Shown: positions 6,803 through 64,000, counted from the first letter of the stretch. The stretch is DNA of 64,000 nucleotides from Candidatus Borrarchaeum weybense (GCA_019057385.1 JAHQJS010000006.1:581038-645037), one strand, 5' to 3'. The notes: a model not told the origin generated them from the sequence alone. Numbers and translations: made by a program.

Positions 6803-6904
6803 CAGTACTTCCTTTTCCTATTTTTTTACCATTATTCGATTTTACTCTTTAATGCACAGAAATCAAAAATTAGAAAAAGAAAGCGCTGGATAGAGGTTAT
6901 TGTT

Positions 6905-7357
6905 ATGAAGAGTGTAGTACCGGGATTAATTGCAATTATTGCAGGAATCTTAGCTTTACTTACTAATATATCAGGGCTTGCAGGCTTTGGTACATATGTA
7001 ATTGTTTTTCAGATTGTTGCAATAATTCTTGTGGCCGTCTTTGGAGGACCTCCCCCACCAATTGTCGTAATTCTTGTAGTAATTGTTTTTTTGATCTTAT
7101 TTTTCCTTGCCGCTGCTGGAGGTTTCACTGTCATTGTAGGAGGCCTCTTAATTTGGTTATCTAAGCGACTTGTACTTGGAAGATTCTTAATCGGAATAGG
7201 CATTGGAGCTGGTTTGATAAGCCTCATATTTTTCCTAATAGTAGCCGCAATTTTAGGAGTTCTTGTTTTGGCGATATTTCTCATGTTATTCTCGCTAAGA
7301 GGATTAGCGATTATCTTGTCTATAATTGCCAGAAGATTGTCAAGAAAAGTCAAGTAA
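6905..7357 (+). CDS. Small Gly-rich ~4-TM membrane protein (paralog 3)
   Basis: MKSVVPG N-terminus and LSIIARR C-terminus match paralog 2. Confidence 0.8.
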   Translation: MKSVVPGLIAIIAGILALLTNISGLAGFGTYVIVFQIVAIILVAVFGGPPPPIVVILVVIVFLILFFLAAAGGFTVIVGGLLIWLSKRLVLGRFLIGIGIGAGLISLIFFLIVAAILGVLVLAIFLMLFSLRGLAIILSIIARRLSRKVK

Positions 7358-7645
7358 GGAAATATTGATTTCTCATTCTTTTTTTCTACAATCTGATTTT
7401 TTTCCGAGTTATAGTTGCTTATAAGTTAGGTTTAGTTTCCATATCAGCGATATTTAACTGAAAATGCACAATAGCTCGACTTTCTTTTTACAAAAATGAT
7501 TAGATGAACCTGAAACCATTAACCTTATATCTGAAAAAAATGGGTTAGAACCACCATTTGAAAGTACAACTATCCTCTTTTAAAATTAGTTAAAAATCGA
7601 TTTCTATAATTCAGCTGTAAATTGGTCAATGGGAGGCTAATCTTT

Positions 7646-8593: not shown

Positions 8594-8852
8594 TCTAATC
8601 GCTATAATATAAAATTCTTCACGTTATTTTTAACTAATTTTTTAAAAATAGATATATTACAATTATTTACTCTATCCATGCGTTTTCATGCACGAAACGT
8701 TTTTAATGTAATGTTTATACTATTATTTTGGATAATGAATCTTTTCCTTCTCTAGGAAAATGTCAATTTGTAGGAGAGATTATGAAAATTAGTGATAAAA
8801 TCATCTTTTCAGATGAAATTATCGCTTAAGGATTTAGGAGGGTATATAGAAT

Positions 8853-9320
8853 ATGTCTATTGAAAGAAGACGAAGAAGACGCGATTTAATTCCCAGGGAT
8901 CCATTTGATATTATCAGACGATTTAGGACGGATTTAGAGGATGTGTTTCAGGATTTTATGGGAGGCTTCGGTCCTGGTTTTTCCGAGATAATGGAATTTC
9001 GATCTGCTCCAATCGACATCCAGGAAACTGAAACTGAAATAATCGTTAAGGCAGATATTCCTGGGTTTGAGAAAGAGAATATTGACCTAGAAATAACTGG
9101 AGATCGACTAAGAATCAAAGCGGAATCTGAAACAGGAAAAGAAGAGGAAGAAAAAGGTTACCATAGACGAGAAAGATCTAGGAAGTCAGTTTACCGTGAA
9201 ATTCTTCTTCCAAAGAATACAAAGCCAGAAGAATCGAAGGCATCATACAAGAACGGTGTTTTAAAAGTTATTTTGACTAAAACTGAAGATGCAAAAGGAA
9301 AGAAATTGGAAATCGAATAA
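8853..9320 (+). CDS. hsp20: Small heat-shock protein (Hsp20/alpha-crystallin)
   Basis: PIDIQET, ADIPGFEKENI, RRER and ASYKNGVLKV; SD GGAGG. Confidence 0.95.
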   Translation: MSIERRRRRRDLIPRDPFDIIRRFRTDLEDVFQDFMGGFGPGFSEIMEFRSAPIDIQETETEIIVKADIPGFEKENIDLEITGDRLRIKAESETGKEEEEKGYHRRERSRKSVYREILLPKNTKPEESKASYKNGVLKVILTKTEDAKGKKLEIE

Positions 9321-9345
9321 AAATGTTTGGAACAATCTATTAACT

Positions 9346-9393
9346 CGTTTTTGGTTCTTTTCCTTTTCCTTTTCCTTTTCCTTTTTACCTTTT
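9346..9393 (+). terminator. Pyrimidine/T-rich terminator with (CCTTTT)n repeats
   Basis: Four tandem CCTTTT units after hsp20, between convergent genes. Confidence 0.5.
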
Positions 9394-9399
9394 CACTGA

Positions 9400-9993
9400 C
9401 TAAGCTTGCTTAATTGCTTCATAGTAACGAATTACAATCTCTCTGCAGAGCTGGATGAATGCACGTTTAACATTAAGCCCATCTACTGCTATTGTTTCAT
9501 AAACTAGGATATCACTGAATCCATTGTCAAAGACGTTGTCAAAGACATTTCGAACCTCATCTTTAGTTACAGTATTTGGCAAATCTCGTTTATTAACCAT
9601 AATTATAACTGGTGTTTTAGATCCATTTTCTTCATGGATAAGAAAATCTTTTAGCTCATTTACAGACCAAATGTTGTCGTCCCAAAATTCTTTCTGTGCA
9701 TCCCAGACGAAAATTACCCCATCCACACCTTGGAGAATGACTTTTCTTTGACCCTTATGCCTTTTCTGTCCAGCTACAGTATATACCTGAAACGTAATTT
9801 TGCCGACGCCAGCAACTGCTCTATCAAAGAATAAAGTACGCCCTGTCGGATCAGCAATGGATTGTAAATCACCTTTTATCAATTCAGGGTCATTTTTGCT
9901 GAGCCAAAAAACAGATGTAGTCTTTCCTCCCATTGAGGGACCCCAATATACAATTTTGAAAACTAGTTTTCCATCAGGAGTTTTGATTGGCAT
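9400..9993 (-). CDS. MglA-family small GTPase
   Basis: KIVYWGPSMGGKTT (G1), RTLFFD (G2), TVAGQ (MglA-type G3), NKRD (G4). Confidence 0.9.
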   Translation of the reverse strand: MPIKTPDGKLVFKIVYWGPSMGGKTTSVFWLSKNDPELIKGDLQSIADPTGRTLFFDRAVAGVGKITFQVYTVAGQKRHKGQRKVILQGVDGVIFVWDAQKEFWDDNIWSVNELKDFLIHEENGSKTPVIIMVNKRDLPNTVTKDEVRNVFDNVFDNGFSDILVYETIAVDGLNVKRAFIQLCREIVIRYYEAIKQA

Positions 9994-10201
9994 TTTTTTT
10001 ACGCCTCTTGTTTTCGAAAGAAGACAAAAGCTAGTTTTGATTATCGAATCAAAGTATTGTCCTTACTGTATTTTTTTGGCTCAACTTTTTTATAAAATGT
10101 GGGAAAAATGACCGCAGCTCTCTAGAATTCTCTCTCTCCTAACAACTAAGGAGCAAAAAAGCATTTTTGGTAATATATTGAGTTAGAGAATTCTAATTGG
10201 T

Positions 10202-10771
10202 CTAATTCTCAAGTTTTTCTGCGATTATTGTTAACGCATCGATTTTTTTGTACATATCTTTTATCAAAGTATGTAACTCTTTGATTTGTGTCTTGAGTAC
10301 CTGAATATGTTCAAATGTTTCTTCTGAACGATTGGAGTCTTCAATTGATGTTTTTGATGTAGTTGTAGTTATTGAGGATGATGTTGTTGTTAATTCACTT
10401 GCTGGTGGAGTAATAATTTCCTCTACTAATGGCTGTAAAGATATTGGAGGAGTATGTTCTTCAATCTCAATTAGGTCTGACGATTTTTCTACTACCACTG
10501 GCGTGGTTGACACTCCACTCAATTCCTCCAATAATTCTCCAACAATTCTACTGAGAATTCTGGGATTCAACTCAAAGCCTTCAGACAGAATAATATCTTC
10601 TAGAATTGAATTAACCGTCTTAGCGTCTAAGGAGGGACAAATTTTTTCTATTGCAGGCCATTTTCCTTTAATTAAACTTAGCTTGCCGTTTTTTGATGTG
10701 GGGTGTGGATGTAATTGAACAGAATATGACGTGCCAGGCAATTTCCTTGTAGGTACACTCAATCTATTCAC
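10202..10771 (-). CDS. Hypothetical protein with Thr/Ser-rich linker and C-terminal coiled coil
   Basis: 189-aa ORF with SD GAGG; upstream of and co-oriented with the GTPase. Confidence 0.65.
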   Translation of the reverse strand: MNRLSVPTRKLPGTSYSVQLHPHPTSKNGKLSLIKGKWPAIEKICPSLDAKTVNSILEDIILSEGFELNPRILSRIVGELLEELSGVSTTPVVVEKSSDLIEIEEHTPPISLQPLVEEIITPPASELTTTSSSITTTTSKTSIEDSNRSEETFEHIQVLKTQIKELHTLIKDMYKKIDALTIIAEKLEN

Positions 10772-10956
10772 CTCTCATTTGAGAGTGTTCTTTATTAGAA
10801 GATAGTTCAAAATCATATAATAAAATTGTCATAATTATTGAAGGCATATACGGCTTCTTTGATGGGTTTCAACTTGTTTAAAGTAGTTATTGGCTAAAAA
10901 CTTCAATGGGTTTATCACTGGCTTAATAATTATGTCTAATGAATGAGTTACGATAA

Positions 10957-11000
10957 CTAAGCAAGAAAGCACCACAGCTTTAGCGTGAGGTAGTTCACAA
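10957..11000 (+). repeat. Solo IS200/IS605 end, copy of 2425-2468
   Basis: 43/44 identical to the reverse complement of 2425-2468. Confidence 0.8.
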
Positions 11001-11092
11001 ATATCAATTAACTTCATCATAAACAAAAACTTAAAATAAGCTAAAATAATAGCCATAGGCAACTACAGCCATGAACTGTAATTGTTTTATAA

Positions 11093-11692
11093 TTGCCTTT
11101 AAGGAAGTTGGCTTTCATGGAAAAGTATCAAACTATCAAAGTAGGCTCTGTAATGAGTAACGTGTTTTATACAATCGATCCTGGTGCCACAATAGAAGAA
11201 GCTGTTTCGCTGTTGAGTGAGAAAGATACTAATTTACTTGTCGTTTGCACTAAAGAAAACTTTCCTGTAGGTATACTCACAGAGCGAGATATTGTTATCC
11301 GTGTTATAGGCGGAGATAAAAAACCAAGCGAAACTCTTGCTGAAGACATAATGTCCTCACCGGTACGAACATGCAGTCCTAACACCTCAATTACAGACGC
11401 TATGCGTCAAATGACAAAGCAGAAAATAAGACAACTATTAGTAGTCAACGAAGGGATTCTTGTGGGCGTATTTCTTGCCAGGGATGCTCTCGCTGTTGCA
11501 CCAGAATTAATTGATATGCTTGCAGAATTAGTTTCAGTTCGAGGTGAAGAAAGCAAACCAATTGAAAAGGGCGCATCTGGATATTGCGATGAATGTGAGG
11601 AATATTCGGATGATTTGAAACTTATTGATGGTCGTTATTATTGTGAATATTGCAGGGAAGCATTGGAATTAGAGAGAATGGAAGAAGAATAA
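11093..11692 (+). CDS. Tandem CBS-domain protein with C-terminal Zn ribbon
   Basis: VGILTERDIV and DIMSSPV; CDEC..CEYC; true start probably ATG 11117. Confidence 0.9.
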   Translation: MPLRKLAFMEKYQTIKVGSVMSNVFYTIDPGATIEEAVSLLSEKDTNLLVVCTKENFPVGILTERDIVIRVIGGDKKPSETLAEDIMSSPVRTCSPNTSITDAMRQMTKQKIRQLLVVNEGILVGVFLARDALAVAPELIDMLAELVSVRGEESKPIEKGASGYCDECEEYSDDLKLIDGRYYCEYCREALELERMEEE

Positions 11693-32995: not shown

Positions 32996-33973
32996 GTGGT
33001 AAAGATATATCATGAAAACGATGCGGATCTATCACTCCTAGATGGTAAAACGATTGCAATAATCGGTTATGGATTACAAGGGTCGGCGCAGGCAATGTGC
33101 ATGAAAGATACTGGCGTAAATGTCATAATTGGTGCACGTCCTAATGGTCCATCTTGGAATAAAGCAAGAGAATATGGTTTTGAAGTTTATGAAATCCCAG
33201 AGGCTTCAAAACGTGCCGAGATTATCTATCTTTTAGTACCCGATGAACATCACGAAAAAGTCTATAAAGAACAAATTGAACCTTACATGGAAAAATGTGA
33301 AGTATTTTGCGTTTCCCATGCATTCAGTATTGTCTTTGGGCAAGTAGTACCACCAGATAACGTAGATATAATCATGGTTGCCCCTAAAGCGCCAGGAAAG
33401 ATCGAACGTCGTCTTTATTGCGAAGGTTTCGGTGCACCTGCTCTTATCGCTGTTGAACAGGATGTAAGTAGAAAGGCAAAAGATATCGCACTTGCAATGT
33501 GCAAAGCAAATGGTTTTACACGTGCTGGAGTAATAGAGACAAAATTCTATGATGAAGTAACCAGTGATCTTTTCGGTGAGCAAGCGGTACTTTGTGGAGG
33601 TCTACACGAGCTTATTAAAACAGGTTTCGACTTGTTGGTTGAAAATGGATATGATCCAGTTCTCGCATATTTTGAATGTCTAAATGAATGTAAACTAATT
33701 ATGGATCTAATTTACGAGGGCGGTATTGAAGGAATGTGGAACAACGTTTCCAACACGGCAGAATACGGTGGCAGAACTAGAGGTGAAAGTGTAATAAATA
33801 AAGCAGCGATGGAAAAAATCCTAAAAGACGTTCAAAGCGGAAAATTTGCTCAAGAATGGATTTCAGAATACAAGGCGAATGCACCATCTCTTAAGGTTCA
33901 ACGAATTACTGGTGCTAAAGAAAACATAGAAGAAGTTGGAAAAGAAGTTAGAAAACTCTTTGAAAAGAAATAA
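32996..33973 (+). CDS. ilvC: Ketol-acid reductoisomerase
   Basis: IIGYGLQG, VAPKAPG, DLFGEQAVLCGG, AYFECL and SNTAEYG. Confidence 0.96.
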   Translation: MVKIYHENDADLSLLDGKTIAIIGYGLQGSAQAMCMKDTGVNVIIGARPNGPSWNKAREYGFEVYEIPEASKRAEIIYLLVPDEHHEKVYKEQIEPYMEKCEVFCVSHAFSIVFGQVVPPDNVDIIMVAPKAPGKIERRLYCEGFGAPALIAVEQDVSRKAKDIALAMCKANGFTRAGVIETKFYDEVTSDLFGEQAVLCGGLHELIKTGFDLLVENGYDPVLAYFECLNECKLIMDLIYEGGIEGMWNNVSNTAEYGGRTRGESVINKAAMEKILKDVQSGKFAQEWISEYKANAPSLKVQRITGAKENIEEVGKEVRKLFEKK

Positions 33974-37925: not shown

Positions 37926-37981
37926 TTGTTATGACAGTTGTGATAACAAAATAAAGGTTTGGTCCTAAATTGTAATAACAA
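37926..37981 (-). promoter_or_regulatory. Operator array A: three TTGTnATnACAA palindromes
   Basis: Boxes at 37926, 37938 and 37970, upstream of the wHTH gene. Confidence 0.75.
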
Positions 37982-37998
37982 CTTTATTCCTGGAATAC

Positions 37999-52426: not shown

Positions 52427-52450
52427 TAGTCGCATAGTCGCATAGTCGCG
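52427..52450 (+). repeat. (TAGTCGCA)x3 iteron-like repeat
   Basis: Three tandem 8-mers; repeated at 53062-53085 and, degenerate, at 58646-58669. Confidence 0.85.
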
Positions 52451-52645
52451 CAGTTTTTGGACGCACCCACCCCACCAAATAGGACGGGCAAGAGCTATTC
52501 TACTTGTTAAAGACAACGTCAATTGATGGAGCTTATACCATCAACTCAACTCCTGGAGAGCCAACTTATACTTGGGGGGTCACACCCCCCGAGCTCCACC
52601 CTTAAAAAATTCACTTTTGTATATGGAGCTCATGCTCAGGAGTTT

Positions 52646-52966
52646 ATGAAATTGTATTTGTGTTCTAAATGTGGAACAACTCGCCACACACCCAATTTAT
52701 TTGAAGGTAAACCATACTGTCGTAAGTGTTACAAAAAAGTGATTCAGAAGCCAAAAGGTTGTTCTATCCCTTTAGGGATACCCCCTAAAAATAGAGGTAA
52801 CTATCGAAAAAGTCAGGGTTTACGTAAAAGAAGAATCTGGCGAGTAGTCAGAAATCAATCTGGTGAGATTATAGAAGAAGAGAGAATACCAAACCGCAAA
52901 GGACGTTTTAACCGTCATATCTCTCTAAATATGAAGGATAAACTCACCCCTCAACCCAATCATTAA
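52646..52966 (+). CDS. Basic Zn-finger protein
   Basis: CSKC..CRKC; ATG 52646 follows a GGAGCT leader and SD GGAG. Confidence 0.7.
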   Translation: MKLYLCSKCGTTRHTPNLFEGKPYCRKCYKKVIQKPKGCSIPLGIPPKNRGNYRKSQGLRKRRIWRVVRNQSGEIIEEERIPNRKGRFNRHISLNMKDKLTPQPNH

Positions 52967-53002
52967 TCTTTTTTTTGTGGAGCTTGGCTCTAAGGTGGCT
53001 AA

Positions 53003-53080
53003 ATGAACCAAAGAGTAATTCTTGAGACCTTACTGAATTTCATTACTCTTGTTGTGGCTATTAGTCGCATAGTCGCATAG
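53003..53080 (+). CDS. 25-aa hydrophobic peptide
   Basis: MNQRVILETLLNFITLVVAISRIVA*; leader identical to that of 55392. Confidence 0.45.
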   Translation: MNQRVILETLLNFITLVVAISRIVA

Positions 53081-53085
53081 TCGCA
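53062..53085 (+). repeat. (TAGTCGCA)x3 perfect repeat
   Basis: Direct reading. Confidence 0.85.
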
Positions 53086-53302
53086 CAAAAAGGAGAGATA
53101 CACCTTGCAAGACAAATTTAATAAGAAAAACGTAACTCTCCGCCTTGTCTTGTGGTATTTTGCAATACACCAAGACGCGAGACTACTAAACTTTGTGGTC
53201 GCGGCGTAATTTGTTCAAGACTACTTAAGTACTTAGGTACATAGGTATCGTCATACCTAAGTAGTCCTCTTTTTTGGAGCTCTAAGGCTCTGGAGTGAAA
53301 TT

Positions 53303-55045
53303 ATGACTGAAGCAATAGAAGAAGCCACAAATCCTGAAAAGGAATGGCTAAAAACTTTAGTTCGAGCGGATTTTGAAAAAACTAAAGAGGATGAAGAACT
53401 TAAACTAAAACCCATAACCTCAGGGATACAATCACTAATCCTTGAATTCTACCAGCGGTTATCCTCGACAGATACACCAGACGAATTCGATCAGTTTTAC
53501 AGTGAAAGACTGAAACAGTATAAAGCAATGCATTTGTTCATCAGTTTCCTTAATGAATATGCGGTTAAATTGGGGTTATCTCCCCGACCAACGGCACCAG
53601 AGTTTTACAGGAATTCACAAGAAGTAGAAAAGTATCTCTTTGAGATTACTGAAGCTACTCTCGGAGAACCACAGACACTTAAAACCTTGCAAGATCAGAT
53701 CAGTGCAAAATATCCCGATCTACTCAGTCAAATCATTAAAAATGAAATTGACAAAACGAACGGGAAATATGAAGATTTTGTCAACAACGAAATGACAGAG
53801 ATTGAGGAGAAAATTGATTTAGGGGTCGAAATAGAACTTGATCCCGTCATCAGTAAACAATTGCAATTAATCGAGGAATCTAAGGGAAAAATTCAGCAAA
53901 TTTCAGCAGAATTAAACAAGATGATTATTCTCGGTGAAACGGTATGGGAATATCTCATCTATGCAATGGTGAGCCCGCACTGCCCACCCTTTTACATCAA
54001 TGGTCTTAAAAAACGTGCTAATTTGCACGTACTTCTGGTGGGCGATATTTCTACAGCAAAGTCAGAAATCATCGACGTTACTGATGAAATAGCCTTTAAG
54101 AGTTTTAAAATAGACGATAGCACACGCGCCGCTATGGAAGGAAAATATACTACTGAAGGAATCGAAGCTGGGGTTATCGACCATGCTAACAATGGCTTGC
54201 TCTGTATTCACGAATTCGATAAAGCCTTGAAGGAGTTTAAATTACTCCGAAGGTGTCTCGATTGCAGAGATTTTACAATTGCGAAAGGCGAGCACATGAA
54301 AATCACTAACATCAACATGACACTTTTCTGTGGAGCCAACCCAACCGATGATTTTTTCCATAAAGAATGTTATCGGGATCAGATCCCCTTTTCAGAGGGG
54401 CTTCTGAGCAGGTTTGATATAACATTGCCCCTCCAATCTACCCCACTACGTAATAACCTCATGCTTGATCGTTTAGACCTCTTTTCCGAAGATAAAATCG
54501 TTGATATTACAAAAACCAAAGAAATCTTAGCAACTTTAATTCATGGCATACAGAAACTCAAAGGCGTTAAAATCGAACAAGAACACCAAAAAATGATAAA
54601 AGAAGTCTTTCGTCTGTATAACATTCGTTTACCACGCCGCCCCTTTGTAATCCTTCGAGACCTCGAAACCATTGCCCGATTTGTCAATGTAATAGCGTCT
54701 GCCAACTTTTATAATAGACAGGTAAAAGACGGCTACGTGTATGCTATAAAAGAGGACATTGAGAAAGCAATTTCCCTATGGGAGGACTTAATGCACCGCC
54801 GCCGACAACTGTACGAAGAAACAGGCGCAAAGAAAGAATTGACAAGCATTGATGACATAATCAAGAAAGAAATCATCATGCACGGTAAAGACCACATTAA
54901 AAGTACGGATCTTTATGAGATAATCGTGGAAAAACTCCATATATGTCACAAAGCGACCTTCTATAGAGCACTAAATCGCATGGAAGCGCAGGGAAAAATA
55001 CAACGTAAAGGCAGGAAAAACGCAACAATCATCCTCAACTCCTAA
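53303..55045 (+). CDS. Divergent MCM-family helicase with non-canonical N-terminus and C-terminal wHTH
   Basis: HVLLVGDISTAKS, EAGVIDHANNGLLCIHEFDK, GANP, LLSRFD and RDLE. Confidence 0.85.
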   Translation: MTEAIEEATNPEKEWLKTLVRADFEKTKEDEELKLKPITSGIQSLILEFYQRLSSTDTPDEFDQFYSERLKQYKAMHLFISFLNEYAVKLGLSPRPTAPEFYRNSQEVEKYLFEITEATLGEPQTLKTLQDQISAKYPDLLSQIIKNEIDKTNGKYEDFVNNEMTEIEEKIDLGVEIELDPVISKQLQLIEESKGKIQQISAELNKMIILGETVWEYLIYAMVSPHCPPFYINGLKKRANLHVLLVGDISTAKSEIIDVTDEIAFKSFKIDDSTRAAMEGKYTTEGIEAGVIDHANNGLLCIHEFDKALKEFKLLRRCLDCRDFTIAKGEHMKITNINMTLFCGANPTDDFFHKECYRDQIPFSEGLLSRFDITLPLQSTPLRNNLMLDRLDLFSEDKIVDITKTKEILATLIHGIQKLKGVKIEQEHQKMIKEVFRLYNIRLPRRPFVILRDLETIARFVNVIASANFYNRQVKDGYVYAIKEDIEKAISLWEDLMHRRRQLYEETGAKKELTSIDDIIKKEIIMHGKDHIKSTDLYEIIVEKLHICHKATFYRALNRMEAQGKIQRKGRKNATIILNS

Positions 55046-55140
55046 TTTTTTTCTCATTACTTAAGTACTTGTAAATGGAGCTTACTTCCAGGAGTAATAT
55101 TTTTAACATAGTCACTACAAAAGTATATACGGTGTTTATA

Positions 55141-55356
55141 TTGATCGAAAAAAAGAAAGTTTATAGATCAGGCAACTCAAAAGCCGTCCTCATACCCGCC
55201 TCTACATTTAAAGCGATGGAGAAACCCGATAAGGTATCAGTTGCTTTTAACGAGGTTATGATAGTTTTTAATGAGGATATGGACATTGAGATGATTAAAT
55301 CTGACATCTTAAACCTTCTCAAGTCAATAGAACTGCGTTATGGGAAGGTTACATAA
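55141..55356 (+). CDS. AbrB/MazE-like DNA-binding protein
   Basis: KKVYRSGNSKAVLIPA; TTG start after GGTG. Confidence 0.7.
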   Translation: MIEKKKVYRSGNSKAVLIPASTFKAMEKPDKVSVAFNEVMIVFNEDMDIEMIKSDILNLLKSIELRYGKVT

Positions 55357-55391
55357 TTCTTTTTTGTGGAGCTTGGCTCTAAGGTGGATTT

Positions 55392-55646
55392 ATGGTAATT
55401 AAAGGCGAAGCGCAAACCATGCACCAAGCATGGCAAAAAGCCTTTGTGAATCTCGAAGAAACTATTAAAGAACGAGAAGTCGAACTTAAAAGACTACAAA
55501 CGGCTAAAAAAGAATGTCAGAAAAAACTCACAAAGGCGAATAAACAAACGGTTCTTGAACTAATTGAGACACGAATTGATTACTTACAGAAAAAACTCGA
55601 AAGCGAGAGAAGTATGCTCAATAGTTTAGAACCTTACAACTCTTAA
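55392..55646 (+). CDS. Coiled-coil hypothetical protein
   Basis: 84 aa with heptads; conserved leader. Confidence 0.7.
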   Translation: MVIKGEAQTMHQAWQKAFVNLEETIKEREVELKRLQTAKKECQKKLTKANKQTVLELIETRIDYLQKKLESERSMLNSLEPYNS

Positions 55647-55692
55647 CCTTTTTTTCCCTTCTTGTGGAGCTATAAGGCTCTGGAGTGAAAAC

Positions 55693-56184
55693 ATGACCTT
55701 AGAATACAAAGGGTTTTTTAAAAACGTAAACTACGAACCCGAAAAGGGAGATTGGATCGAGGTTTTTGCAAGCGATTGGAACAAAGACTATTGGGCATTC
55801 TACGCATACATTCCATTCGAGAACTATGAACAAGGAATTCAAGTGATCAATGACTTGATCGGCGAATTGAATTGGCGAGACGGGGACGTATATATTGAGT
55901 TAATTAATATGAGTCCTGGTCTTGAAAAATTGTATAACAAACTCTACGATGACGGCTATTTTGCTCATTGGTCGGCTCTTAATCCCGACAAATGGCGCGA
56001 ATATTTAGAGGAAATCGAAGAGGAAGAAGCCGAAGAATTTTCCGACTTCAAAGATCAATATTTTAGGAAAAACTGTCAAACAAAATCAATTGAAGAGTGC
56101 GATGAAACGTCTTGCAATGAATCTTGTATAGATGAATGGGCGTATCCTCAACGACCAGATCCATCCCTGTATTACGACCAATAA
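55693..56184 (+). CDS. Acidic hypothetical protein
   Basis: Very D/E/W/Y-rich; conserved leader. Confidence 0.75.
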   Translation: MTLEYKGFFKNVNYEPEKGDWIEVFASDWNKDYWAFYAYIPFENYEQGIQVINDLIGELNWRDGDVYIELINMSPGLEKLYNKLYDDGYFAHWSALNPDKWREYLEEIEEEEAEEFSDFKDQYFRKNCQTKSIEECDETSCNESCIDEWAYPQRPDPSLYYDQ

Positions 56185-56238
56185 ATCTCCACCTTTTTTT
56201 TCTTTCATGGAGCTAACAAAGGCTCAGGAGTGTTTACT

Positions 56239-56619
56239 ATGAATGTCGAAATCAATTCTTTCGCGGATCTTATATACGTCCTATCTGAATTCGCAAAAGT
56301 TGATAAAAACTACGAATGGCACGTCAGTGAAGACGATGAACGTGTGTATTTAACACATTTCAGATGTGAAACTTCAGAAGCACCAGAATATTTTGTAAAT
56401 GACAGGAAACAAGACTTCAAAAAGTTGTGGGACACCGCATATCAGTACACCTTACGGTGTGCGACTTCTAAGGAAGAACCGAGTTTTGAGGCTCTTTGTA
56501 ATGCGATAAAGAAACAGAACATCGAAATCAGAACGTCGACGGATGAGGAACGGCTTTCCTATGTAGATCGAATCACTGAAATGGACGCTAATATGGAAGA
56601 AGAACTTGCTATGGAGTGA
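56239..56619 (+). CDS. Acidic hypothetical protein
   Basis: ATG 56239 after leader GGAGTG. Confidence 0.7.
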   Translation: MNVEINSFADLIYVLSEFAKVDKNYEWHVSEDDERVYLTHFRCETSEAPEYFVNDRKQDFKKLWDTAYQYTLRCATSKEEPSFEALCNAIKKQNIEIRTSTDEERLSYVDRITEMDANMEEELAME

Positions 56620-56641
56620 AGATCAGAATTAGGGTGTTTAC

Positions 56642-56776
56642 ATGACAGAAGAACGCGAATTTAGTGTATTTGTCATCTTAAGAAAGATGGCGACAGACCG
56701 CCAAGACGCTTTAGATAAAGTAGATCAGGACATACTCGATAAAGATTTCGAAATTTACGATGTCATTGAATCTTAA
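56642..56776 (+). CDS. 44-aa acidic microprotein (not in ORF track)
   Basis: GGGTG SD; MTEEREFSVFVILRKMATDRQDALDKVD..IES*. Confidence 0.55.
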   Translation: MTEEREFSVFVILRKMATDRQDALDKVDQDILDKDFEIYDVIES

Positions 56777-56869
56777 ACGAGACTACTTAGGTAATTAGGT
56801 ACTTAGGTAATTCCAAACATCTCCTATTTTTTTATGTGTGGAGCTTCAAAAGGCTCTGGAGTGAACAAT

Positions 56870-57814
56870 ATGGTACAAATCAAATTTGATAGTGCAAAAC
56901 TTTGGTCTTCTCTTGTGAAGGGTGTAAATGCTCTCATAAAAGAAGCCGAATTTGAGACCACTAAAGAAGGACTACATCTTCGAGCAATTGATGACGCGCA
57001 CATTGCCATGATCGACTTGGACATACCAAGCGATTCTATGAAAGAATACTCTTTTACTCTTCATGACAAAGAGGCAGACTTCGCGAAATTCGGCATAAAT
57101 ATTACTGAAATGGCTACAATAATGCGACGTATCCCCATTGGAGAAAAATTGACGCTGACATTGGATTCACAAAAAAGCAAATTTCATGTCGTAGCAGACT
57201 CTTTATACACAAAACGACGATTTTCAATTCCTCTCCTAGGTTCAACTTCCGCTGAAGACATTCCTGTACCGAAGATAGACTTTACAACAAAAATCAAACT
57301 TAAAGCAAAGTACCTCAAAGAGGCAATTAAAGACGCCGCTGTGATGGGTGACTATTTAAAACTCAAGACGACTGCCGATAAATTTTCTTTATGGGCAGAA
57401 GGCGATACAGGAAACGTCAGCATAGACTATGAATATGGAGAATCAATCTCTCTTGAGAAACGCGGTGACGCTGTTGGAATTTATGCTTTAAAGTACTTAG
57501 ACGATATGACCGATCCTATCCCTGGCGAATCTGAGGTAAGTATTGAGTTCTCAAATGATATGCCTCTGAAACTTACGTGGATGTTAAACGGCTCAAAACT
57601 AGATTACTACTTAGCTCCACGTATTCCACCCTCGGATGAAGAACCACCAAAAAAAGAGGAAAAGGAACAAGAAAAAACTAAGGATGACACAGAAGAGGAA
57701 AAAGAAACGCACGAAGAAACTAAGGAATTCCCTTGTGACGAGTGCGGAAAGACCTTTACTAGCCAAAGAGGACTTAACACACACATGCGCGTACATAAAG
57801 ACTCTGATGAATAG
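56870..57814 (+). CDS. pcn: PCNA sliding clamp fused to an acidic linker and a classical C2H2 zinc finger
   Basis: LRAIDDAHIAMIDL, YALKYL, EFSNDMPLKL and YYLAPRI; tail FPCDECGKTFTSQRGLNTHMRVH. Confidence 0.9.
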   Translation: MVQIKFDSAKLWSSLVKGVNALIKEAEFETTKEGLHLRAIDDAHIAMIDLDIPSDSMKEYSFTLHDKEADFAKFGINITEMATIMRRIPIGEKLTLTLDSQKSKFHVVADSLYTKRRFSIPLLGSTSAEDIPVPKIDFTTKIKLKAKYLKEAIKDAAVMGDYLKLKTTADKFSLWAEGDTGNVSIDYEYGESISLEKRGDAVGIYALKYLDDMTDPIPGESEVSIEFSNDMPLKLTWMLNGSKLDYYLAPRIPPSDEEPPKKEEKEQEKTKDDTEEEKETHEETKEFPCDECGKTFTSQRGLNTHMRVHKDSDE

Positions 57815-57883
57815 TCCTTCCTCTATTTTTTCTCGTTACTTAAGTAATTTTTTAAGGAGCTTCTGACTCCAGGGTGTATTTAC

Positions 57884-58168
57884 ATGAACGGATGGAAAAA
57901 AATATGGGATACCGAAGAAAAAGGACTCTACAAAGACAATTCTTTCTCGTTCGTTGATTTTGAGAAAGAGGACTTATATCTATTGATACAAAAGTCTGGT
58001 CCGAGTGGTTGGTATCTTTATTTATTTGAACACGGTAGCCCAAGAACTGTTGGATGGGCTACTACAAAAGAAAAAGCCTTAGAGATAGCTAAGTTTATGA
58101 TGGAAACAGATAATTTCCCACCAGCACATAAGTACTTCAATGCGGATCTTGAACTTTGTAAGTCCTAA
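57884..58168 (+). CDS. Hypothetical protein
   Basis: 94 aa, TKEKALEIAKFMM motif; conserved leader. Confidence 0.7.
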   Translation: MNGWKKIWDTEEKGLYKDNSFSFVDFEKEDLYLLIQKSGPSGWYLYLFEHGSPRTVGWATTKEKALEIAKFMMETDNFPPAHKYFNADLELCKS

Positions 58169-58231
58169 CATCCTTTTTTTCTAATTCTGTCTGCAAAGTG
58201 CTGCAGGGGCTCAAACCTCCAGGATCAGAAT

Positions 58232-58319
58232 TTGTTATTACAATTCAGGCCCTTACTTTCATTTTGTTATCACATTTGTAATAACATTCTACACCCGGCA
58301 ACTTATTTTGTGATGACAA
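58232..58319 (+). promoter_or_regulatory. Operator array B: four TTGTnATnACAA palindromes upstream of a TATA box
   Basis: Boxes at 58232, 58264, 58276 and 58308; AAAATATATAA at 58344. Confidence 0.75.
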
Positions 58320-58377
58320 ATTATAACCTAATAACTGAGACACAAAATATATAATTGAGTTCTTATAATGTAGTTCA

Positions 58378-58622
58378 TGAGACACACACGAAATACATCT
58401 ACAAGGTCGCACCCTTGCTGACCTATTATGTCTCAGAAAAGGAAGGGTCTCCTGCCGCGGGAGTTTGAAACGTCACTCACTTCCCTCCGTGAGTAAGCGG
58501 GCGTGGTCACGACTCGAAATGTGGGTAAAAGTCGTGTAGTGAAGTCAGTGAAACAGAAAACTCATAAAAAGAAAAAACCCTCCTGAGGTAGAAGAACGGG
58601 GGTTCGATTCCCCCAAGCTCCT
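58378..58622 (+). ncRNA. Structured ncRNA ending in a tRNA/tmRNA-like acceptor plus T-arm domain
   Basis: GGAGTTT(58460)/AAGCTCC(58615) 7-bp stem; GGGGG-TTCGATT-CCCCC T-arm (58598-58614); internal hairpins; no long ORF. Confidence 0.65.
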
Positions 58623-58748
58623 CCCTCAAAAATTAAAGACTAGCGTAGCCGCATAGTCATATAGTCGCAAATATTATTTATACGTGGAGCTTAATAAATT
58701 TAATGGAACGGGAGTTTTTACTTCAGAACTACTTAGGTAGTGCGAAAT

Positions 58749-59690
58749 ATGTCCTTAGTGCACTTTTTGCAGAAAAACCCTGACTACCTCTCAGGTGTCA
58801 GAAGAATCCTCGAATATGAAGAGGACCATAAAGACGATCAGTATTTCAAGGACTTAGGGTGGTCTTGGGATGATATTAGACTTTCAGGACCACACTTGAA
58901 TCAGTTAGTTTTGGCGGGAATAATTCAAATTGTGTATAAATCCCGCAAGAATCGCGGCTATTTGTTAGTAGATCGAGAAAAAACAAAGAAAGAGATCGAA
59001 CTATACGAAGCACAATTAAATTATAGTCCAGAGACAGACGAAGAGATTGAATTCTCAGAATCTATCTTTGATGACATTATAGGCTATAACGATGTGAAAA
59101 AACTCTTTAAACGGGCGTTGCGGAGTGAAGAACCGATACATATCCTCATGATTGGACCACCCGCCAGCGCAAAGAGTATGTTTCTTTTTTGTCTTGCACG
59201 TTTAGATGGGGCTCATTATTCTCTTGGCTCATCGAGTACCAAAAGCGGATTATCTGATTTTCTTATTGAGTATTCTCCGCGCATATTATTGATCGACGAG
59301 TTGGACAAAATGAACACACCTGACTACTCCGTACTGCTCTCCTTATGTGAGAGTGGACTTGTGGGAGAAACAAAATACAAGAGAGTACGAAGTGTTCAGT
59401 TGAAATGTTCTGTATTCGCGGCTGCCAATGATGACAAAAAAATTCCGCGAGAAGTTAAAAGTCGATTTATTGCACTTCGATTTAAGGAGTATTCAAAAGC
59501 AGATTTTATAGAAACTGCCGTAAAACTTCTTATGCGGGAAGGAAAAGACCATGACTTAGCCACCTATATCGCTGAAAAAGTATGGCACTTTAAAAACCGC
59601 GATATAAGAGACTGCATACAGATAAGCCGCTTAGGAGATACACAAGAAGAGATCGACTCAACCCTGAAAACACTTCAGAAGTATTCGTGA
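58749..59690 (+). CDS. wHTH plus AAA+ ATPase (MCM/RuvB-like, typical of archaeal integrative elements)
   Basis: HILMIGPPASAKS, LIDELDK, AAAN, SRF and DIRD. Confidence 0.85.
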   Translation: MSLVHFLQKNPDYLSGVRRILEYEEDHKDDQYFKDLGWSWDDIRLSGPHLNQLVLAGIIQIVYKSRKNRGYLLVDREKTKKEIELYEAQLNYSPETDEEIEFSESIFDDIIGYNDVKKLFKRALRSEEPIHILMIGPPASAKSMFLFCLARLDGAHYSLGSSSTKSGLSDFLIEYSPRILLIDELDKMNTPDYSVLLSLCESGLVGETKYKRVRSVQLKCSVFAAANDDKKIPREVKSRFIALRFKEYSKADFIETAVKLLMREGKDHDLATYIAEKVWHFKNRDIRDCIQISRLGDTQEEIDSTLKTLQKYS

Positions 59691-59742
59691 GTACCTAAGT
59701 ACTCATGTTTGTTTTATTTTTTCTTTTCATGGAGCTTCAATC

Positions 59743-61461
59743 ATGAAGGCTCTACCACAAACAGGAGGAATTCAAATTTCGTGGATACATGAATTTTTTG
59801 AGAAATATCGTGCCCAAATAACACCCCTCAGTATCACACATTTCAATATCGAGGATTTCCCGCAACTTTTTACTGCAAAAGTAAATGGGAAAACTCTTCC
59901 TGGATATTTTGAATTCGTAATTGAGTATGATATTGGATCGGGGTTATGTCCTTTTGAACCACAAAAAACAGACTCTGAACAACTTACAACAGATGAAGAC
60001 AGCTCTGAACAAATTACAATGACCGACAAACTACGTCAAGAATATGCGAAGTTTATACAGTCAGACGAAGTTTATGAACTACCTGTTGATCCCGTAGAAA
60101 CGCTGAACTTTATCCGCTATTTATTCCGCGAATATAAGGGGCTTTTTGTTCTTTATGATTGCGAAACAATAGCACCTGACAGTTCGGCGGCACACATGAC
60201 GCTACAGGATCGTCAATGTTCGCAACTACTTAAAAATTTAGCATTAGACCACAAAATTCGCAAAAAAGGAAGCGCAATCATAGTGACTGCCGAGAGGCTT
60301 GAGGATATTGCCCAAAAAGTCCGAAAGGTAGCTAATATCATTGAAATTCCGCTTCCTGACGATACATCACGAAAGAAAGTGTTTGAACAAGCAACTGAAA
60401 AAGTCGCTTATAATCCTAAGGACTTGGATCAATGGGTAGTCGGATCGAAAGGTTTGACAATCAAAGAACTTAAGTCGATCATAGTTGAACTTTATCAGAA
60501 AGACACCACAATTATGTTAGGTGACTTCTATGATCAAAAAGCGAAAAAGTTAGAGAAGTACGACATGGTCTCTTTAGAGAATCCAAAGTTCGGATTCGAG
60601 GGCTTAGTTCTACCAGACTACTTAAGTACTTTCCTTAAGACCTTCATAATAAAGCCATATCAACAAGCTATGCAAATTCGTCCAAAAGGGATCTTGTTCA
60701 CAGGACCACCAGGCACAGGGAAATCAGTGTTGGCGGAAGTAATAGCCTACGAACTTAACAGACCGTTGATTACCGTTGACGCAAGTAATTTACTCTCTCA
60801 ATATGTCGGGGAGAGTGAGAAACGGACTGCTCAATTTTTCCGAGTAATCAGACAATTTGGTGAGGCAGTTGTCCTTATTGATGAAGCCGAAGAATTACTC
60901 AGCGAGCGATCTACAGCAGTCAACACTGATAGCGGTGTGACATCCAATTTGAAGGCAACCTTTCTTCATGAAATGGCGAGAGATCATGGAGTATTGTTTA
61001 TACTCAATACTAATTATCCAATGAAACTCGATGCTGCCATGGTTCGTGTGGGCAGAATTAATTACAAAATACCACTTTTGCCACCATTTACCGCTGAAGA
61101 ACGGGCTAAAATACTTCGTGTGGTGTTAGATGTTCAATTAAAAGTCCCATACGATAAGAACATAGATTTTGAAGCAATTGCCGCAACACTTCAGGGATAC
61201 ACAGGCGCAGAATTACGAGAATTAGCAAGTGTAGCATGGGCTATTGCTTGTGTTGAAAATGACAAAGAAAAAACCGAGCAGGAAGATTTTGATGTCGCAA
61301 AAACGGTGTTTCTACCCGATACGCGAAAGATCAAAGAAATGACCGCCGACGCACTTTCAGTAGTGAATGACAAAAGGCTTTTGCCGCCACAACTCCACAA
61401 AGAAAAAGAAAAGAAGGTTCAAGAGTTTCAAGAAGGCACTTGGGATTCACTCTTTCAATAA
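59743..61461 (+). CDS. Ycf46-like AAA+ ATPase (degenerate N-terminal AAA plus active C-terminal AAA)
   Basis: PKGILFTGPPGTGKS, YVGESE, IDEAE, LDAAMVRVGRI and GYTGAEL; true start may be ATT 59776. Confidence 0.85.
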   Translation: MKALPQTGGIQISWIHEFFEKYRAQITPLSITHFNIEDFPQLFTAKVNGKTLPGYFEFVIEYDIGSGLCPFEPQKTDSEQLTTDEDSSEQITMTDKLRQEYAKFIQSDEVYELPVDPVETLNFIRYLFREYKGLFVLYDCETIAPDSSAAHMTLQDRQCSQLLKNLALDHKIRKKGSAIIVTAERLEDIAQKVRKVANIIEIPLPDDTSRKKVFEQATEKVAYNPKDLDQWVVGSKGLTIKELKSIIVELYQKDTTIMLGDFYDQKAKKLEKYDMVSLENPKFGFEGLVLPDYLSTFLKTFIIKPYQQAMQIRPKGILFTGPPGTGKSVLAEVIAYELNRPLITVDASNLLSQYVGESEKRTAQFFRVIRQFGEAVVLIDEAEELLSERSTAVNTDSGVTSNLKATFLHEMARDHGVLFILNTNYPMKLDAAMVRVGRINYKIPLLPPFTAEERAKILRVVLDVQLKVPYDKNIDFEAIAATLQGYTGAELRELASVAWAIACVENDKEKTEQEDFDVAKTVFLPDTRKIKEMTADALSVVNDKRLLPPQLHKEKEKKVQEFQEGTWDSLFQ

Positions 61462-61558
61462 TTTCCTCTTTTTTTTCTTTATCACTACTTAGGTAATTGT
61501 GTTCATTTTTAGAGGGGCTTCTTCTCCAGGAAGCTACTAACTTTAATGAGGAAAAAAG

Positions 61559-62059
61559 TTGAGTAAATATCTCGAAGTAAAAACTCAATTCAAAAGTATG
61601 GCACATCTTATCGAGGCATTAACATCAATCTATGGCTACGGTACAGTCAAAGCGGGTAAAAATTTACCTCTCAAGGATTATCTTGGCAATATACGACCAG
61701 AAAAGGCAGATATCGTAGTACCAAGACGCTTCATTCATCCAGCGTCAAACGATCTTGGATTCAAGAAAAATGAAAACGGTGTTTATACCATGATTATCTC
61801 AGAATTTGACGAAGTAGTAGCATCAATGACTCCCCAAAGACTCGCTAATGAACTTAATTTGTATGGTCCGCCATATTCGACTCAATGCAAAGGAATTCCG
61901 AATACTGAGATAAAGAAACAATACAATCTCAGTTTTATCAGAGACTTTGCCAAGAAAAACCGTTGGAATCTGTCATTGACAGACAAAGAAACTCATTTTG
62001 AAGTTCGTTTGAAACGAAGAGTGACTGTTTCCGCAAAAGCAAGGAGGTCTGCCAGATGA
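61559..62059 (+). CDS. DUF1257 (Ycf35-like) protein
   Basis: SKYLEVKTQF..LIEAL, ADIVVPR..SNDLGF..YTMIISEFD. Confidence 0.8.
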   Translation: MSKYLEVKTQFKSMAHLIEALTSIYGYGTVKAGKNLPLKDYLGNIRPEKADIVVPRRFIHPASNDLGFKKNENGVYTMIISEFDEVVASMTPQRLANELNLYGPPYSTQCKGIPNTEIKKQYNLSFIRDFAKKNRWNLSLTDKETHFEVRLKRRVTVSAKARRSAR

Positions 62060-62262
62060 CACAAGAAGAGCAGATCTTCTTCAAAATCGACAAAAAGACA
62101 GGTAACTTGACAATCGAAGGCAAAGGATTCGAAGGACCGATCTGTGAAGACGTTTTAAAGTCATTTGAAGAGTTAGGAGAGATAACACATGACAAAAGAA
62201 CACCAGAGTACTATAAAAAACCTCGACAAGTCCAAACAACCCGCCAACGACTTAGACATTAA
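62056..62262 (+). CDS. DUF2997 protein
   Basis: FKIDKKTG..IEGKGFEGPIC..ELG..TPEYY. Confidence 0.8.
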   Translation: MTQEEQIFFKIDKKTGNLTIEGKGFEGPICEDVLKSFEELGEITHDKRTPEYYKKPRQVQTTRQRLRH

Positions 62263-62448
62263 AATAAAAACAATAATTCGCATTGAGGACGATGGAACAG
62301 TCATTTTTTGCGATATTCCAACTGAGTTAATCCCTTTAGCCTTAGCATTGCGGGGCGATTAATTTCTCTTTTTTTTCTTATTATTTAGGTAATTCGTTAG
62401 GATGGAGCTTCTTCGTTGAGAGGCTACCAACTTCAGGAGAAAACCAAG

Positions 62449-63591
62449 ATGTCAGATACGAAAAACATTTCCATTTCTGTTAATGAAATGGATGTTCTTC
62501 TGAATGGTCAACGAATAGATCTTCATATCTCGTCAGGAGATATGTTTAGTCAATCTAAGTTGAATAAATTGCTCTACAAAGGATATAAAAGGCTTTCATC
62601 AACAATGGTGAAAACTTATACAAACGGCGATACTCTCACGCTTGATTCAATCAAGACAAAAGCACATGAACTAAGGCAGAAATACTGTTTCAGGTTATTT
62701 GAAAACAGCGTTGAAGACAACAGAGGGGCTGTATATTTTTGTCCCGAGTCTCTGACCGAAAAGTTGCGCAAAGACCTACGGGAACTCAAAAAGGAATATA
62801 AAAAGACACTTGAGTTTATTGGCAAAATCAGAGATACTTTGAATGAAGAAATCTTTAGTTTTTACAGTGAGCATTGTATTTATTGCGGGCGACCTGTGAA
62901 AGAAGAAAAGGCGGGAAAGATCATAAAATTGCGATGCACAGGCGATGATTCGCATATATTCACTAAAAAACTCATGGATCATTGGTTAGAACAAAATAAG
63001 TCGGTGATAGAAGTACCCTCGTTAGAGGAGATTAAAGCGCGAAAGAGATTTTATTATCGCTTCAGCAAATATTTTTTCCCCACTGAAGAACTCACTGACA
63101 ACTTAGTTGATACACAACTTAAACAGCAAAAGCAAAAAATGTATCAGGCAGAATTATCTACATGCAAGTCTGCAATAAAAAAACAGTTATGGCAAAAGAT
63201 GAAGTTAATCCTTGAATACATAGATGATCGGCTTTCAAAAAGAGAAAAACTTCGTGCAGACCAACTTGATAAAATCAAGAATGATTTAGATGCATTAGAA
63301 GAACTAAATAAAAGCACCTTCAAAATTCCTCAGATTTCTAATTCTATAGACAATCTCAATGCACAGATTGCAGACAAAGAAGCTGCACTGAAAGTTTTGA
63401 CAAACATCTCGAAGAACATCGAAAAGAAAATCAAAGAAGCTGAAGAAAATGAAAATATTGCGATGGATCTAATAGACAAATTAGAGGACATCGACATAGA
63501 AATTGGTACAGAAACGCTTGAACTAGAACAAAAAGAAGCAGTTGAAATTGAACTTGGTGACCAGAAAGAAGAGATTTTTTCTACAAATTAG
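62449..63591 (+). CDS. DUF3150-like coiled-coil protein with inserted Zn ribbon
   Basis: RGAVYFCPE motif, CIYC..C..H insert, position after DUF1257/DUF2997. Confidence 0.55.
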   Translation: MSDTKNISISVNEMDVLLNGQRIDLHISSGDMFSQSKLNKLLYKGYKRLSSTMVKTYTNGDTLTLDSIKTKAHELRQKYCFRLFENSVEDNRGAVYFCPESLTEKLRKDLRELKKEYKKTLEFIGKIRDTLNEEIFSFYSEHCIYCGRPVKEEKAGKIIKLRCTGDDSHIFTKKLMDHWLEQNKSVIEVPSLEEIKARKRFYYRFSKYFFPTEELTDNLVDTQLKQQKQKMYQAELSTCKSAIKKQLWQKMKLILEYIDDRLSKREKLRADQLDKIKNDLDALEELNKSTFKIPQISNSIDNLNAQIADKEAALKVLTNISKNIEKKIKEAEENENIAMDLIDKLEDIDIEIGTETLELEQKEAVEIELGDQKEEIFSTN

Positions 63592-63682
63592 TTTAAATCA
63601 AATCTTAGTACCTAGGTACTAAGAAATATTTTTCAATTTTTTATTTTTATGTGGGGCTTCATGGCTCAGGGGTGAACAAACT

Positions 63683-63880
63683 ATGCCTATAGATTCATGG
63701 CAAGAGTTCATTGAAACGATCAAAGGGCTTCTAATTGGTTGCGGTATAGATATTATTATTGTGTCTTTCTATATTCCAGAAGTCCGCAATGATCTCAATT
63801 ATTGGGTTCTCACACCAATACTCATCATCTTAGACTTTCTTGTGCGCTTTGTGAGAACCTTTTTTATTTTTTTATTATGA
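63683..63880 (+). CDS. Small 2-TM protein
   Basis: 65 aa; conserved leader GGGGCTTCATGGCTCAGGGGTGA. Confidence 0.6.
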   Translation: MPIDSWQEFIETIKGLLIGCGIDIIIVSFYIPEVRNDLNYWVLTPILIILDFLVRFVRTFFIFLL

Positions 63881-64000
63881 GGGGCTTCTTCTCCAGGAAG
63901 AACGCTACCAACTTTTTGTGAGGGATTAATATAAGACAACGAAAAAAGATTCAACTTCTGAGGGTCTCTCCAGTCACACGAATGAGACTTGTCAAAAAGT

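Follow-up and report, generated by a model that had tools for sequence, protein, structure and literature searches.

The locus lies within the replication arm of a mobile element, or provirus, integrated in the genome of a Ca. Sifarchaeia (Asgard) archaeon; sequences that match RNA polymerase subunit B of the host exactly bear this name. The stretch of DNA analysed, referred to here as the window, is 64,000 nucleotides long, and the host genome of 4.18 Mb to which it belongs is rated as 100% complete with 7% contamination. The genes around the locus form a co-oriented block that includes many orphans. Two operons of this arm open with leaders that carry a related module, and the features of both leaders are collected in Table 1 together with the neighbouring genes. 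The PCNA gene is complete and carries its zinc finger at the C-terminus, which is unusual in an archaeal element. The serine recombinase of the element is encoded ~26 kb downstream of the locus, outside the window.

Table 1. Features of the two operon leaders and of the surrounding part of the window.
Feature	Position	Strand	Remarks
Host ilvC	32996-33973		
Upstream heptamer GGAGCTT, first operon	52528-52534	+	Alternative partner over 7 bp, U.G included; probability of pairing in context 0.02
First-operon module: G6-TCACA-C6 hairpin, GAGCTCC, A, CCC	52574-52601	+	Behind the 13-mer CACAAAATATATA at 52321
Downstream heptamer GGAGCTC, first operon	52625-52631	+	Perfect partner of 52591-97; the 5' UTR of the first gene (ATG 52646) begins with it
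Leader heptamers GGRGCTY	52625-63887, continuing past the window to ~67.6 kb	+	12-30 nt before gene starts
MCM, divergent	53303-55045		
PCNA fused to C2H2 zinc finger	56834-57814		
Promoter-like 13-mer CACAAAATATATA, BRE/TATA type	58341-58353	+	Identical copy at 52321
5' hairpin domain, TGAGACA/TGTCTCA closure	58379-58436	+	~25 nt past the TATA-like 13-mer
Upstream strand GGAGTTT (acceptor 5' strand of the preliminary description)	58460-58466	+	7 pairs with 58615-21, including one G.U (U5.G68)
Interior domain	58473-58551	+	Encloses hairpin CACGACT/AGTCGTG 58508-36, 15-nt loop beginning CGAA
T arm GGGGG-TTCGATT-CCCCC	58598-58614	+	Strict motif match; Rfam tmRNA T-arm match 18.5 bits
Acceptor-type 3' strand AAGCTCC, discriminator T58622, then CCC	58615-58625	+	Adjoins the T stem with zero spacer
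A/T-rich spacer	58626-58685	+	Three degenerate 8-bp ATAGTCGC-type repeats ~58644-58672; aligned as the permuted-tmRNA core loop
Downstream heptamer GGAGCTT	58686-58692	+	Full Watson-Crick complement of 58615-21; copy of the arm-wide leader motif that belongs to the first gene
MCM/AAA-like ATPase	58749-59690		
AAA ATPase	59743-61461		

The promoter-like 13-mer of the second operon occurs just four times in the genome, and the two copies outside the operon pair precede protein genes, for which reason we rejected its reading as a stable-RNA promoter. From the spacing usual for archaeal TATA boxes, the transcript is predicted to start at ~58377. The 5' hairpin domain has a fold z-score of -1.7, which is not significant on its own, and the z-scores for the pieces of this leader are weak throughout (-1.3 to -1.9). 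Within the interior domain, TCACTCACTTC (58473-83) has two possible pairings, a long one with GAAGTCAGTGA (58541-51) and the local ACTCAC/GTGAGT (58475-94); folding gives the long TCACTCACTTC/GAAGTCAGTGA helix a pair probability of 0.8-0.95. The region 58537-97 contains 30 A in 61 nt. The CCA end is not encoded, T58622 being followed by CCC. The preliminary description had reported the ACTCAC/GTGAGT hairpin, the TGAGACA/TGTCTCA domain, an A-rich region of ~60 nt and the lack of an encoded CCA, and each of these lies where it was placed. It had also likened the CACGACT/AGTCGTG hairpin to a Ser(CGA) anticodon arm; this hairpin is an uninterrupted helix of 7 bp that closes a 15-nt loop, and not a bulge-helix-bulge. 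Two further readings of the locus were discarded. Open reading frames on the strand of the element are arbitrary and do not exceed 40 aa, with a single frame of 55 aa on the opposite strand, so a small protein is not indicated; and minus-strand genes, which a minus-strand terminator would serve, are absent nearby.

Two kinds of repeat were noted in this part of the element. A 69-bp segment with internal palindromes (TTGTTATTACAA...) is present at 58218-58286 (+) and, inverted and with 81% identity, at 37927-37994 (-), that is, directly upstream of the promoter of the second operon and at the left edge of the element. Triple 8-bp direct repeats of the ATAGTCGC type form three sets (52427-52452, 53060-53085 and 58644-58672, the third of which is degenerate), each at most ~150 nt from a tRNA-like module or directly after the first small gene, and such repeats stand beside both modules. 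These sets may serve the replication arm as iterons or operators.

The significance of the T arm was assessed with a strict motif, defined as a 5-bp stem with at least four G-C pairs, the pair G53-C61 and the loop TTCRANN, which was searched on both strands of the 4.18-Mb genome. There are 27 occurrences, 26 of which lie in tRNA genes (22 called by ARAGORN or Infernal and four in recognisable multi-intron tRNA genes); the 27th is the arm at 58598-58614. With 26 of 27 such motifs in tRNA genes, we conclude that this arm is either derived from a tRNA or selected. A T arm with G53-C61 and TTCRANN that adjoins a 7-bp acceptor stem is found at the locus. The preliminary description had termed both the T arm and the acceptor canonical. 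The T arm is far beyond chance. The acceptor as closed by the upstream strand GGAGTTT is weaker evidence: this partner is just modestly beyond chance, the expectation for such 7-mers being 0.039 per 200 nt, and the closure has a probability of ~0 in folds of the full leader. The exact 24-mer extending from the T arm through AAGCTCC is found at 12 loci in species-representative genomes, and the five of these that were scanned with ARAGORN are bacterial tRNA-Ala genes. The tRNA-like end is therefore generic, and of the alanine type in sequence.

No conventional gene is called here. ARAGORN reports no tRNA or tmRNA gene in the whole window and leaves the locus uncalled when introns are allowed, and a search of Rfam at gathering scores gives no match. 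The tRNA family RF00005 has no match at the locus above 18.5 bits, and any match to its clan is likewise at most 18.5 bits. These results, together with the lack of SmpB in the genome, bear out the earlier statement that the element is neither a normal tRNA nor a tmRNA and yet is tRNA-like.

An interrupted tRNA was considered next, the tRNA genes of this host being heavily interrupted. For the Sifarchaeaceae, ~1.9 intervening sequences per tRNA gene have been described, along with many D-arm insertions that are without a canonical splicing motif (bioRxiv 10.64898/2026.10.13.758758). On this explanation the locus would encode a functional tRNA, Ser(CGA) or other, that is borne by the element, interrupted by at least three introns and spliced by the host. 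Besides the much-interrupted tRNA genes of the family, the length of host tRNA genes, which reach 228 to ~470 nt, speaks for such a gene, and so does the hairpin itself, which on removal of 12 nt becomes CACGA-CUCGAAG-UCGUG with U33 and A37 in place. The splicing signals do not agree with it. A custom bulge-helix-bulge finder, which picks up the canonical tRNA-Asn intron of the host along with non-canonical host introns, found no bulge-helix-bulge of host quality in 58360-58660; the matches were at noise level and none lay at boundaries that would yield a tRNA. The supposed anticodon helix is continuous and unbulged, lacking both bulges, and positions 32-35 (CTCG) face GTAA where CGAG would be needed.

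We also removed every pair of segments from the D region and the variable region (~804,000 variants) and submitted the products to ARAGORN with an anticodon-loop intron allowed. This simulated splicing produced 1,493 tRNA calls, 715 of them Ser(CGA), compared with 2,396-11,125 calls for seven shuffled interiors. As the shuffled interiors give more calls, an ARAGORN call after free deletion is uninformative. The best Ser cloverleaf that can be forced on the sequence is defective at three places: a single nucleotide separates the acceptor from the D stem, the three positions of the D stem comprise one Watson-Crick pair, one wobble and one mismatch, and the variable-arm helix is absent. Neither a D arm with U8 and G18-G19 nor an anticodon arm whose loop has 7 nt is present. 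The locus has G8, U73 and an A/U-rich acceptor, whereas the host Ser tRNAs have G73. The host Ser tRNAs, and even a host tRNA gene with four introns, keep canonical exons (GCCGGGGTAGCC...), which are missing here, and the paralogous module of the first operon is of tRNA size yet has no cloverleaf. The proposal of a multi-intron tRNA, which had been put forward for this element, thus finds neither the splice motifs nor the cloverleaf it would need, and we consider it very improbable. A decoy for anticodon nucleases, the other earlier suggestion, finds no support for want of a credible anticodon arm at the locus, and the paralogue at 52574-52601 has none at all.

Several observations were made on the tRNA genes of the host in the course of this comparison. 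The gene at C3:114533-114760 (-) is 228 nt long, with about four intervening sequences, one of them inside the T loop, and has the anticodon loop CTCGAGA; that at C6:872129-872597 (+) extends over ~470 nt. Both are missed by ARAGORN and by the Rfam tRNA model alike. The 179-kb contig C1 carries ~12 compact, intron-free tRNA genes without an encoded CCA, six of which form one tight cluster (e.g. C1:19435-19896), whereas on the remaining contigs tRNA genes are interrupted and in many cases have the CCA encoded. This contig may represent contamination or a large replicon of foreign origin. A tRNA-Pyl (CTA) gene was called by ARAGORN at C7:143743-143811 (-), in agreement with the account of stop-codon recoding given in a report on Sifarchaeia (PMC9723677).

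Both modules match the same core, positions 36-95, of the permuted tmRNA family RF04321 in Infernal searches. In this core the T arm is followed by the acceptor 3' strand, NCCN, a spacer rich in A/U and, last, the acceptor 5' strand, the place of which is taken in the alignment by the downstream heptamer; the searches thus arrived at the permuted order independently. The first-operon copy aligns without gaps at 21.1 bits (E 0.035) and the second at 18.6 bits (E 0.15), both far from the gathering score of 47; with the 18.5-bit match to RF00023, every tmRNA-type score is below gathering. The pair G3.U70 is absent from the pairings available in cis, which have A3-U70 instead, an ARAGORN search for tmRNA found none, and SmpB (PF01668) has no match in this genome rated 100% complete. 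A true tmRNA was rejected on these three grounds. We know of no tmRNA in archaea.

In both copies the acceptor-type 7-mer RAGCUCC has a perfect Watson-Crick partner downstream, after a spacer of 27 nt in the first operon (GGAGCTC, 52625) and 64 nt in the second (GGAGCTT, 58686), and the pair 7:66 formed with this partner, G:C in the first operon, is A:U in the second. For the first operon the downstream pairing is predicted with a probability of 0.99 when the full leader is folded and 0.90 when the unit is folded by itself; the second operon gives 0.97 for the unit by itself and 0.12 for the full leader. Closure with the upstream strand has a probability of 0.0 in both full leaders and is ~10 kcal/mol worse in the second operon, and it reaches 0.5 in the isolated 166 nt. 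The upstream GGAGUUU (58460-66) prefers AAACUC at 58558-63, and the upstream heptamer of the first operon is seldom paired with the module because it is sequestered in the hairpin TTGATGG/CCATCAA. Folding models therefore favour the downstream partner over the upstream one that was originally proposed. RAGCUCC does, however, have several competing partners, in the manner of a switch.

The two leaders share just the promoter, the hairpin stem and the sequence RAGCTCC-N-CCCTYAAAAA, and the predicted start is separated from the T arm or hairpin by 217 nt in one of them and by 221 nt in the other. The hairpin loops differ at five of seven positions, and that of the first operon (GUCACAC) is without the T-loop consensus; recognition of a T-loop cannot therefore be a requirement common to both copies. 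A different loop with a kept stem and kept RAGCUCC-N-CCCUYAAAAA points to selection on the helix and its flank, and in our comparison of the two sequences this argues for selection on structure and against a decaying relic. The explanation in question is that the module is a non-functional remnant of the 3' end of a tRNA gene, such as an old attachment site, with complements that arose by chance or from the leader motif. Fragments of tRNA 3' ends are indeed common in mobile elements, the 24-nt end shared with bacterial tRNA-Ala genes is generic and the upstream partner is just modestly unlikely. The module nevertheless matches no tRNA fragment of the host, lies inside the element behind a promoter and not at an element end, and belongs to an element whose recombinase is a serine recombinase ~26 kb away. 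The retention of the stem, the 7-mer and a 12-nt trailer alongside a loop with five of seven positions changed is unlike neutral decay. We judge a relic to be improbable.

The heptamer is not confined to the two operon starts. Heptamers of this type precede ~17-20 genes of the arm, nearly every plus-strand gene start from 52.6 to ~67.6 kb, usually with a T tract on the 5' side and a Shine-Dalgarno sequence on the 3' side. GGAGCT is found 13 times on the plus strand of the arm against 1.2 expected, and of 12 matches to the full leader grammar in the genome nine are in the arm. The pentamer GGRGC is followed by T in 25 of 27 cases in the arm, compared with 29% genome-wide, and position 7 is mostly T. 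In 11 of 14 leaders a U precedes the heptamer, and two leaders have A at position 7 and so pair with neither module. In the distal arm (61514, 63653 and 63881 and, beyond the window, 64499-67564) we note a change of the leader heptamer from U-GGAGCUU to A-GGGGCUU. Pairing of GGGGCUU with AAGCUCC would give an alanine-type stem with G3.U70, the same stem as the acceptor of Arthrobacter tRNA-Ala.

The leader heptamers also form local hairpins of 4-6 bp with GGCUCU, GCUC or CUCC, with loops of 3-12 nt, and such a local hairpin could by itself explain the motif. This leads to a second functional reading, in which the GGAGCU/RGCUCY stems constitute a family of cis-regulatory hairpins, an RNA signal or DNA operator that is read by a protein of the element or acts as a translational switch. 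The two operon leaders would then merely have an additional G/C hairpin, and the T-loop of the second would be inherited or incidental and not read by tRNA enzymes. One and the same inverted-repeat family is present at all leaders, with loops of 3-12 nt, which speaks for this reading, and the first-operon copy without a T-loop, the switch-like competition for RAGCUCC and the triple ATAGTCGC repeats next to both modules are in keeping with it. So is the anti-Shine-Dalgarno-like CCUCC, which occurs three times in ~170 nt against 0.11 expected. The reading does not account well for the T-loop: a 7-nt loop matches TTCRANN by chance about once in 512, and every other strict T-arm motif sits in a tRNA gene. 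It also leaves aside the junction between hairpin and 7-bp helix, which in both copies has zero spacer, as in tRNA, and a search of the genes of the element identified no RNA-binding regulator. On balance we regard it as rather unlikely.

The same heptamers can be read as targets. As an extension of the processing reading preferred below, the leader RNA, once released, might act in trans as a natural guide that pairs with GGRGCUU before each cistron, so that RNase P (or tRNase Z) would cut the polycistronic RNA into monocistronic mRNAs. Artificial external guides that consist of a T arm and an acceptor strand direct RNase P; we know of no description of a natural one. In favour of a guide, the module strand and the heptamer are exactly complementary; the plus-strand enrichment (13 GGAGCT against 1.2), the T that follows GGRGC (25/27 against 29%), the ~17-20 copies placed 12-30 nt before gene starts behind a T tract and the preceding U (11/14) speak for it as well. 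Position 3 of the heptamer varies between A and G only, both of which pair with U70, and small guide RNAs are able to direct tRNase Z (PMC3366928). Seven base pairs are, however, short for a duplex in trans. The local partners of the leaders (GGCUCU and similar) explain the hexamer as well, including U6 as a wobble pair, and the two leaders with A at position 7 fall outside the pairing with either module. The complementarity of the module strand to the heptamer of most genes of the arm lends some support to the earlier suggestion of a guide, though we consider a trans-acting guide distinctly unlikely. With a similarly small probability, the freed leader would pair with the GGRGCUU of ~20 cistrons to give two-piece tRNA top halves, with RNase P punctuating the transcript or the mRNAs carrying a tRNA-like 5' domain. 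In trans, the GGGGCUU leaders would form the alanine-type stem GGGGCUU/AAGCUCC with G3.U70, as in two-piece tmRNA.

Searches for relatives returned little beyond the genome itself. No homologous DNA was found among 40 relatives, and covariation is therefore limited to one pair between the two paralogues. The module pattern was found in the host genome only among 400 Asgard genomes, a search of same-class genomes with the downstream protein likewise returned only the host, and viral contigs searched by protein and by pattern contained no relative. Relatives of the downstream ATPase with 45-49% identity (L002-L006) have no module; their leaders consist of a plain T tract and a Shine-Dalgarno sequence and are without the heptamer. 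The only close relatives, with 90-93% amino-acid identity and a 612-nt gap each, are contigs in SRR14699978 (1,831 nt) and SRR14699980 (1,752 nt). One DNA run of the same study yields a contig identical over 58150-58744, and a soil DNA run from another study covers 58582-58800 with a single difference, so that neither offers variation informative on covariation; among the listed sequencing runs that contain the stretch there is no RNA run. In metagenome contigs the pattern found 59 G/C hairpins, all of them unrelated and lacking both the T-loop and the trailer. We note that the repeat GGGGGCT(T/A)AGCCCCC-AAGCTCCCCCC recurs in low-GC metagenome contigs (L025, L034, L039, L042, L044-L046, L057, L062 and L066); it is apparently an unrelated dispersed double-hairpin element of another organism.

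From these comparisons we conclude that the locus is a real tRNA-like module and is not a tRNA, a tmRNA or an interrupted tRNA gene. As to what it does, the reading we tentatively prefer, with a good deal of reserve, is that the module is a t-element-like, circularly permuted tRNA top half that would be cut by RNase P and tRNase Z. The tRNA-like portion would consist of the T arm and AAGCUCC, U, CCC only, with the ~130 nt in front of it forming a separate structured leader. The acceptor-type strand and a GGAGCUY heptamer would together build a 12-bp stack of acceptor and T arm. The most stable partner is predicted to be the heptamer 64 nt downstream, which opens the leader of the first gene, with the upstream GGAGUUU as an alternative, and the resulting order would be the permuted one of T arm, 3' strand, NCCC, A/U spacer and 5' strand. 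An acceptor-like helix stacked on a T-arm-like hairpin is the geometry of a t-element, and it is found in both copies just before the 5' UTR of the first gene.

We infer transcription of the module from the promoter. RNase P would then cut directly 5' of the heptamer, before G58686 (G52625 in the first operon), and tRNase Z after the discriminator U58622 (A52598 in the first operon). The host has an archaeal RNase P RNA, which scores 207.9 bits. The two cuts would release a leader RNA of ~245 nt and leave the mRNA with a defined 5' end that starts with the small leader hairpin, which might in turn affect expression. Against this reading stand the two Rfam scores far below the gathering score of 47 bits, the GUCACAC loop without T-loop consensus and the downstream pairing of only 0.12 in the full second-operon leader. 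The weak fold z-scores of that leader (-1.3 to -1.9) and the local 4-6-bp hairpins that alone could explain the motif count against it as well. What the sequence itself shows is the anatomy of the module, its duplication, the complementarity and the folding preference.

Processing signals that resemble tRNA are known in plant mitochondria, in Haloferax and in some viruses. If the preferred reading is correct, a permuted top half that heads operons of an Asgard mobile element would be new both in the order of its parts and in having an acceptor strand that matches a heptamer before nearly every gene, and the element would be exploiting the tRNA-maturation enzymes of its host to shape its own mRNAs. 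Should the action in trans be correct, this would be, to our knowledge, the first natural counterpart of engineered external guide sequences. The link of the module to the arm-wide heptamer is potentially very interesting, and the locus is also a warning that a tRNA-like end in an Asgard genome need not belong to an interrupted tRNA gene.

The module can be compared with four known systems. With the interrupted tRNA genes of the Sifarchaeaceae it shares the host group, and the 163 nt between the acceptor strands are within the host range, but those genes keep canonical exons and mostly splice motifs, both of which the locus lacks. It resembles two-piece (permuted) tmRNA (RF04321) in the succession of T arm, acceptor 3' strand, NCCN, A/U-rich spacer and acceptor 5' strand; it differs in its sub-threshold scores and in having no pseudoknots, tag frame, cis G3.U70 or SmpB. 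External guide sequences and tRNase Z guides (PMC3366928) likewise combine a T-arm hairpin with an adjoining acceptor-type strand of 7 nt that complements the target, and guide and target would assemble into a two-part substrate resembling a pre-tRNA; unlike this locus, they are man-made tools. The fourth system is that of the t-elements, which RNase P and tRNase Z are known to process in plant mitochondria (PMC1920247) and in Haloferax, upstream of the 5S rRNA of H. volcanii, in work by Holzle (2008, 2012) as cited in PMC4326828. As in t-elements, a mimic of the acceptor and T arm without a working anticodon arm lies beside a gene start in a longer transcript. The best-supported 5' strand is here downstream, however, so that the order is permuted, or else ~130 nt of foreign RNA are inserted if the upstream strand is used. 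The module, for which cleavage is a prediction, also differs in its setting in an Asgard mobile element, in the lack of the T-loop consensus from one of its two copies and in the recurrence of its paired heptamer before most genes of the arm.
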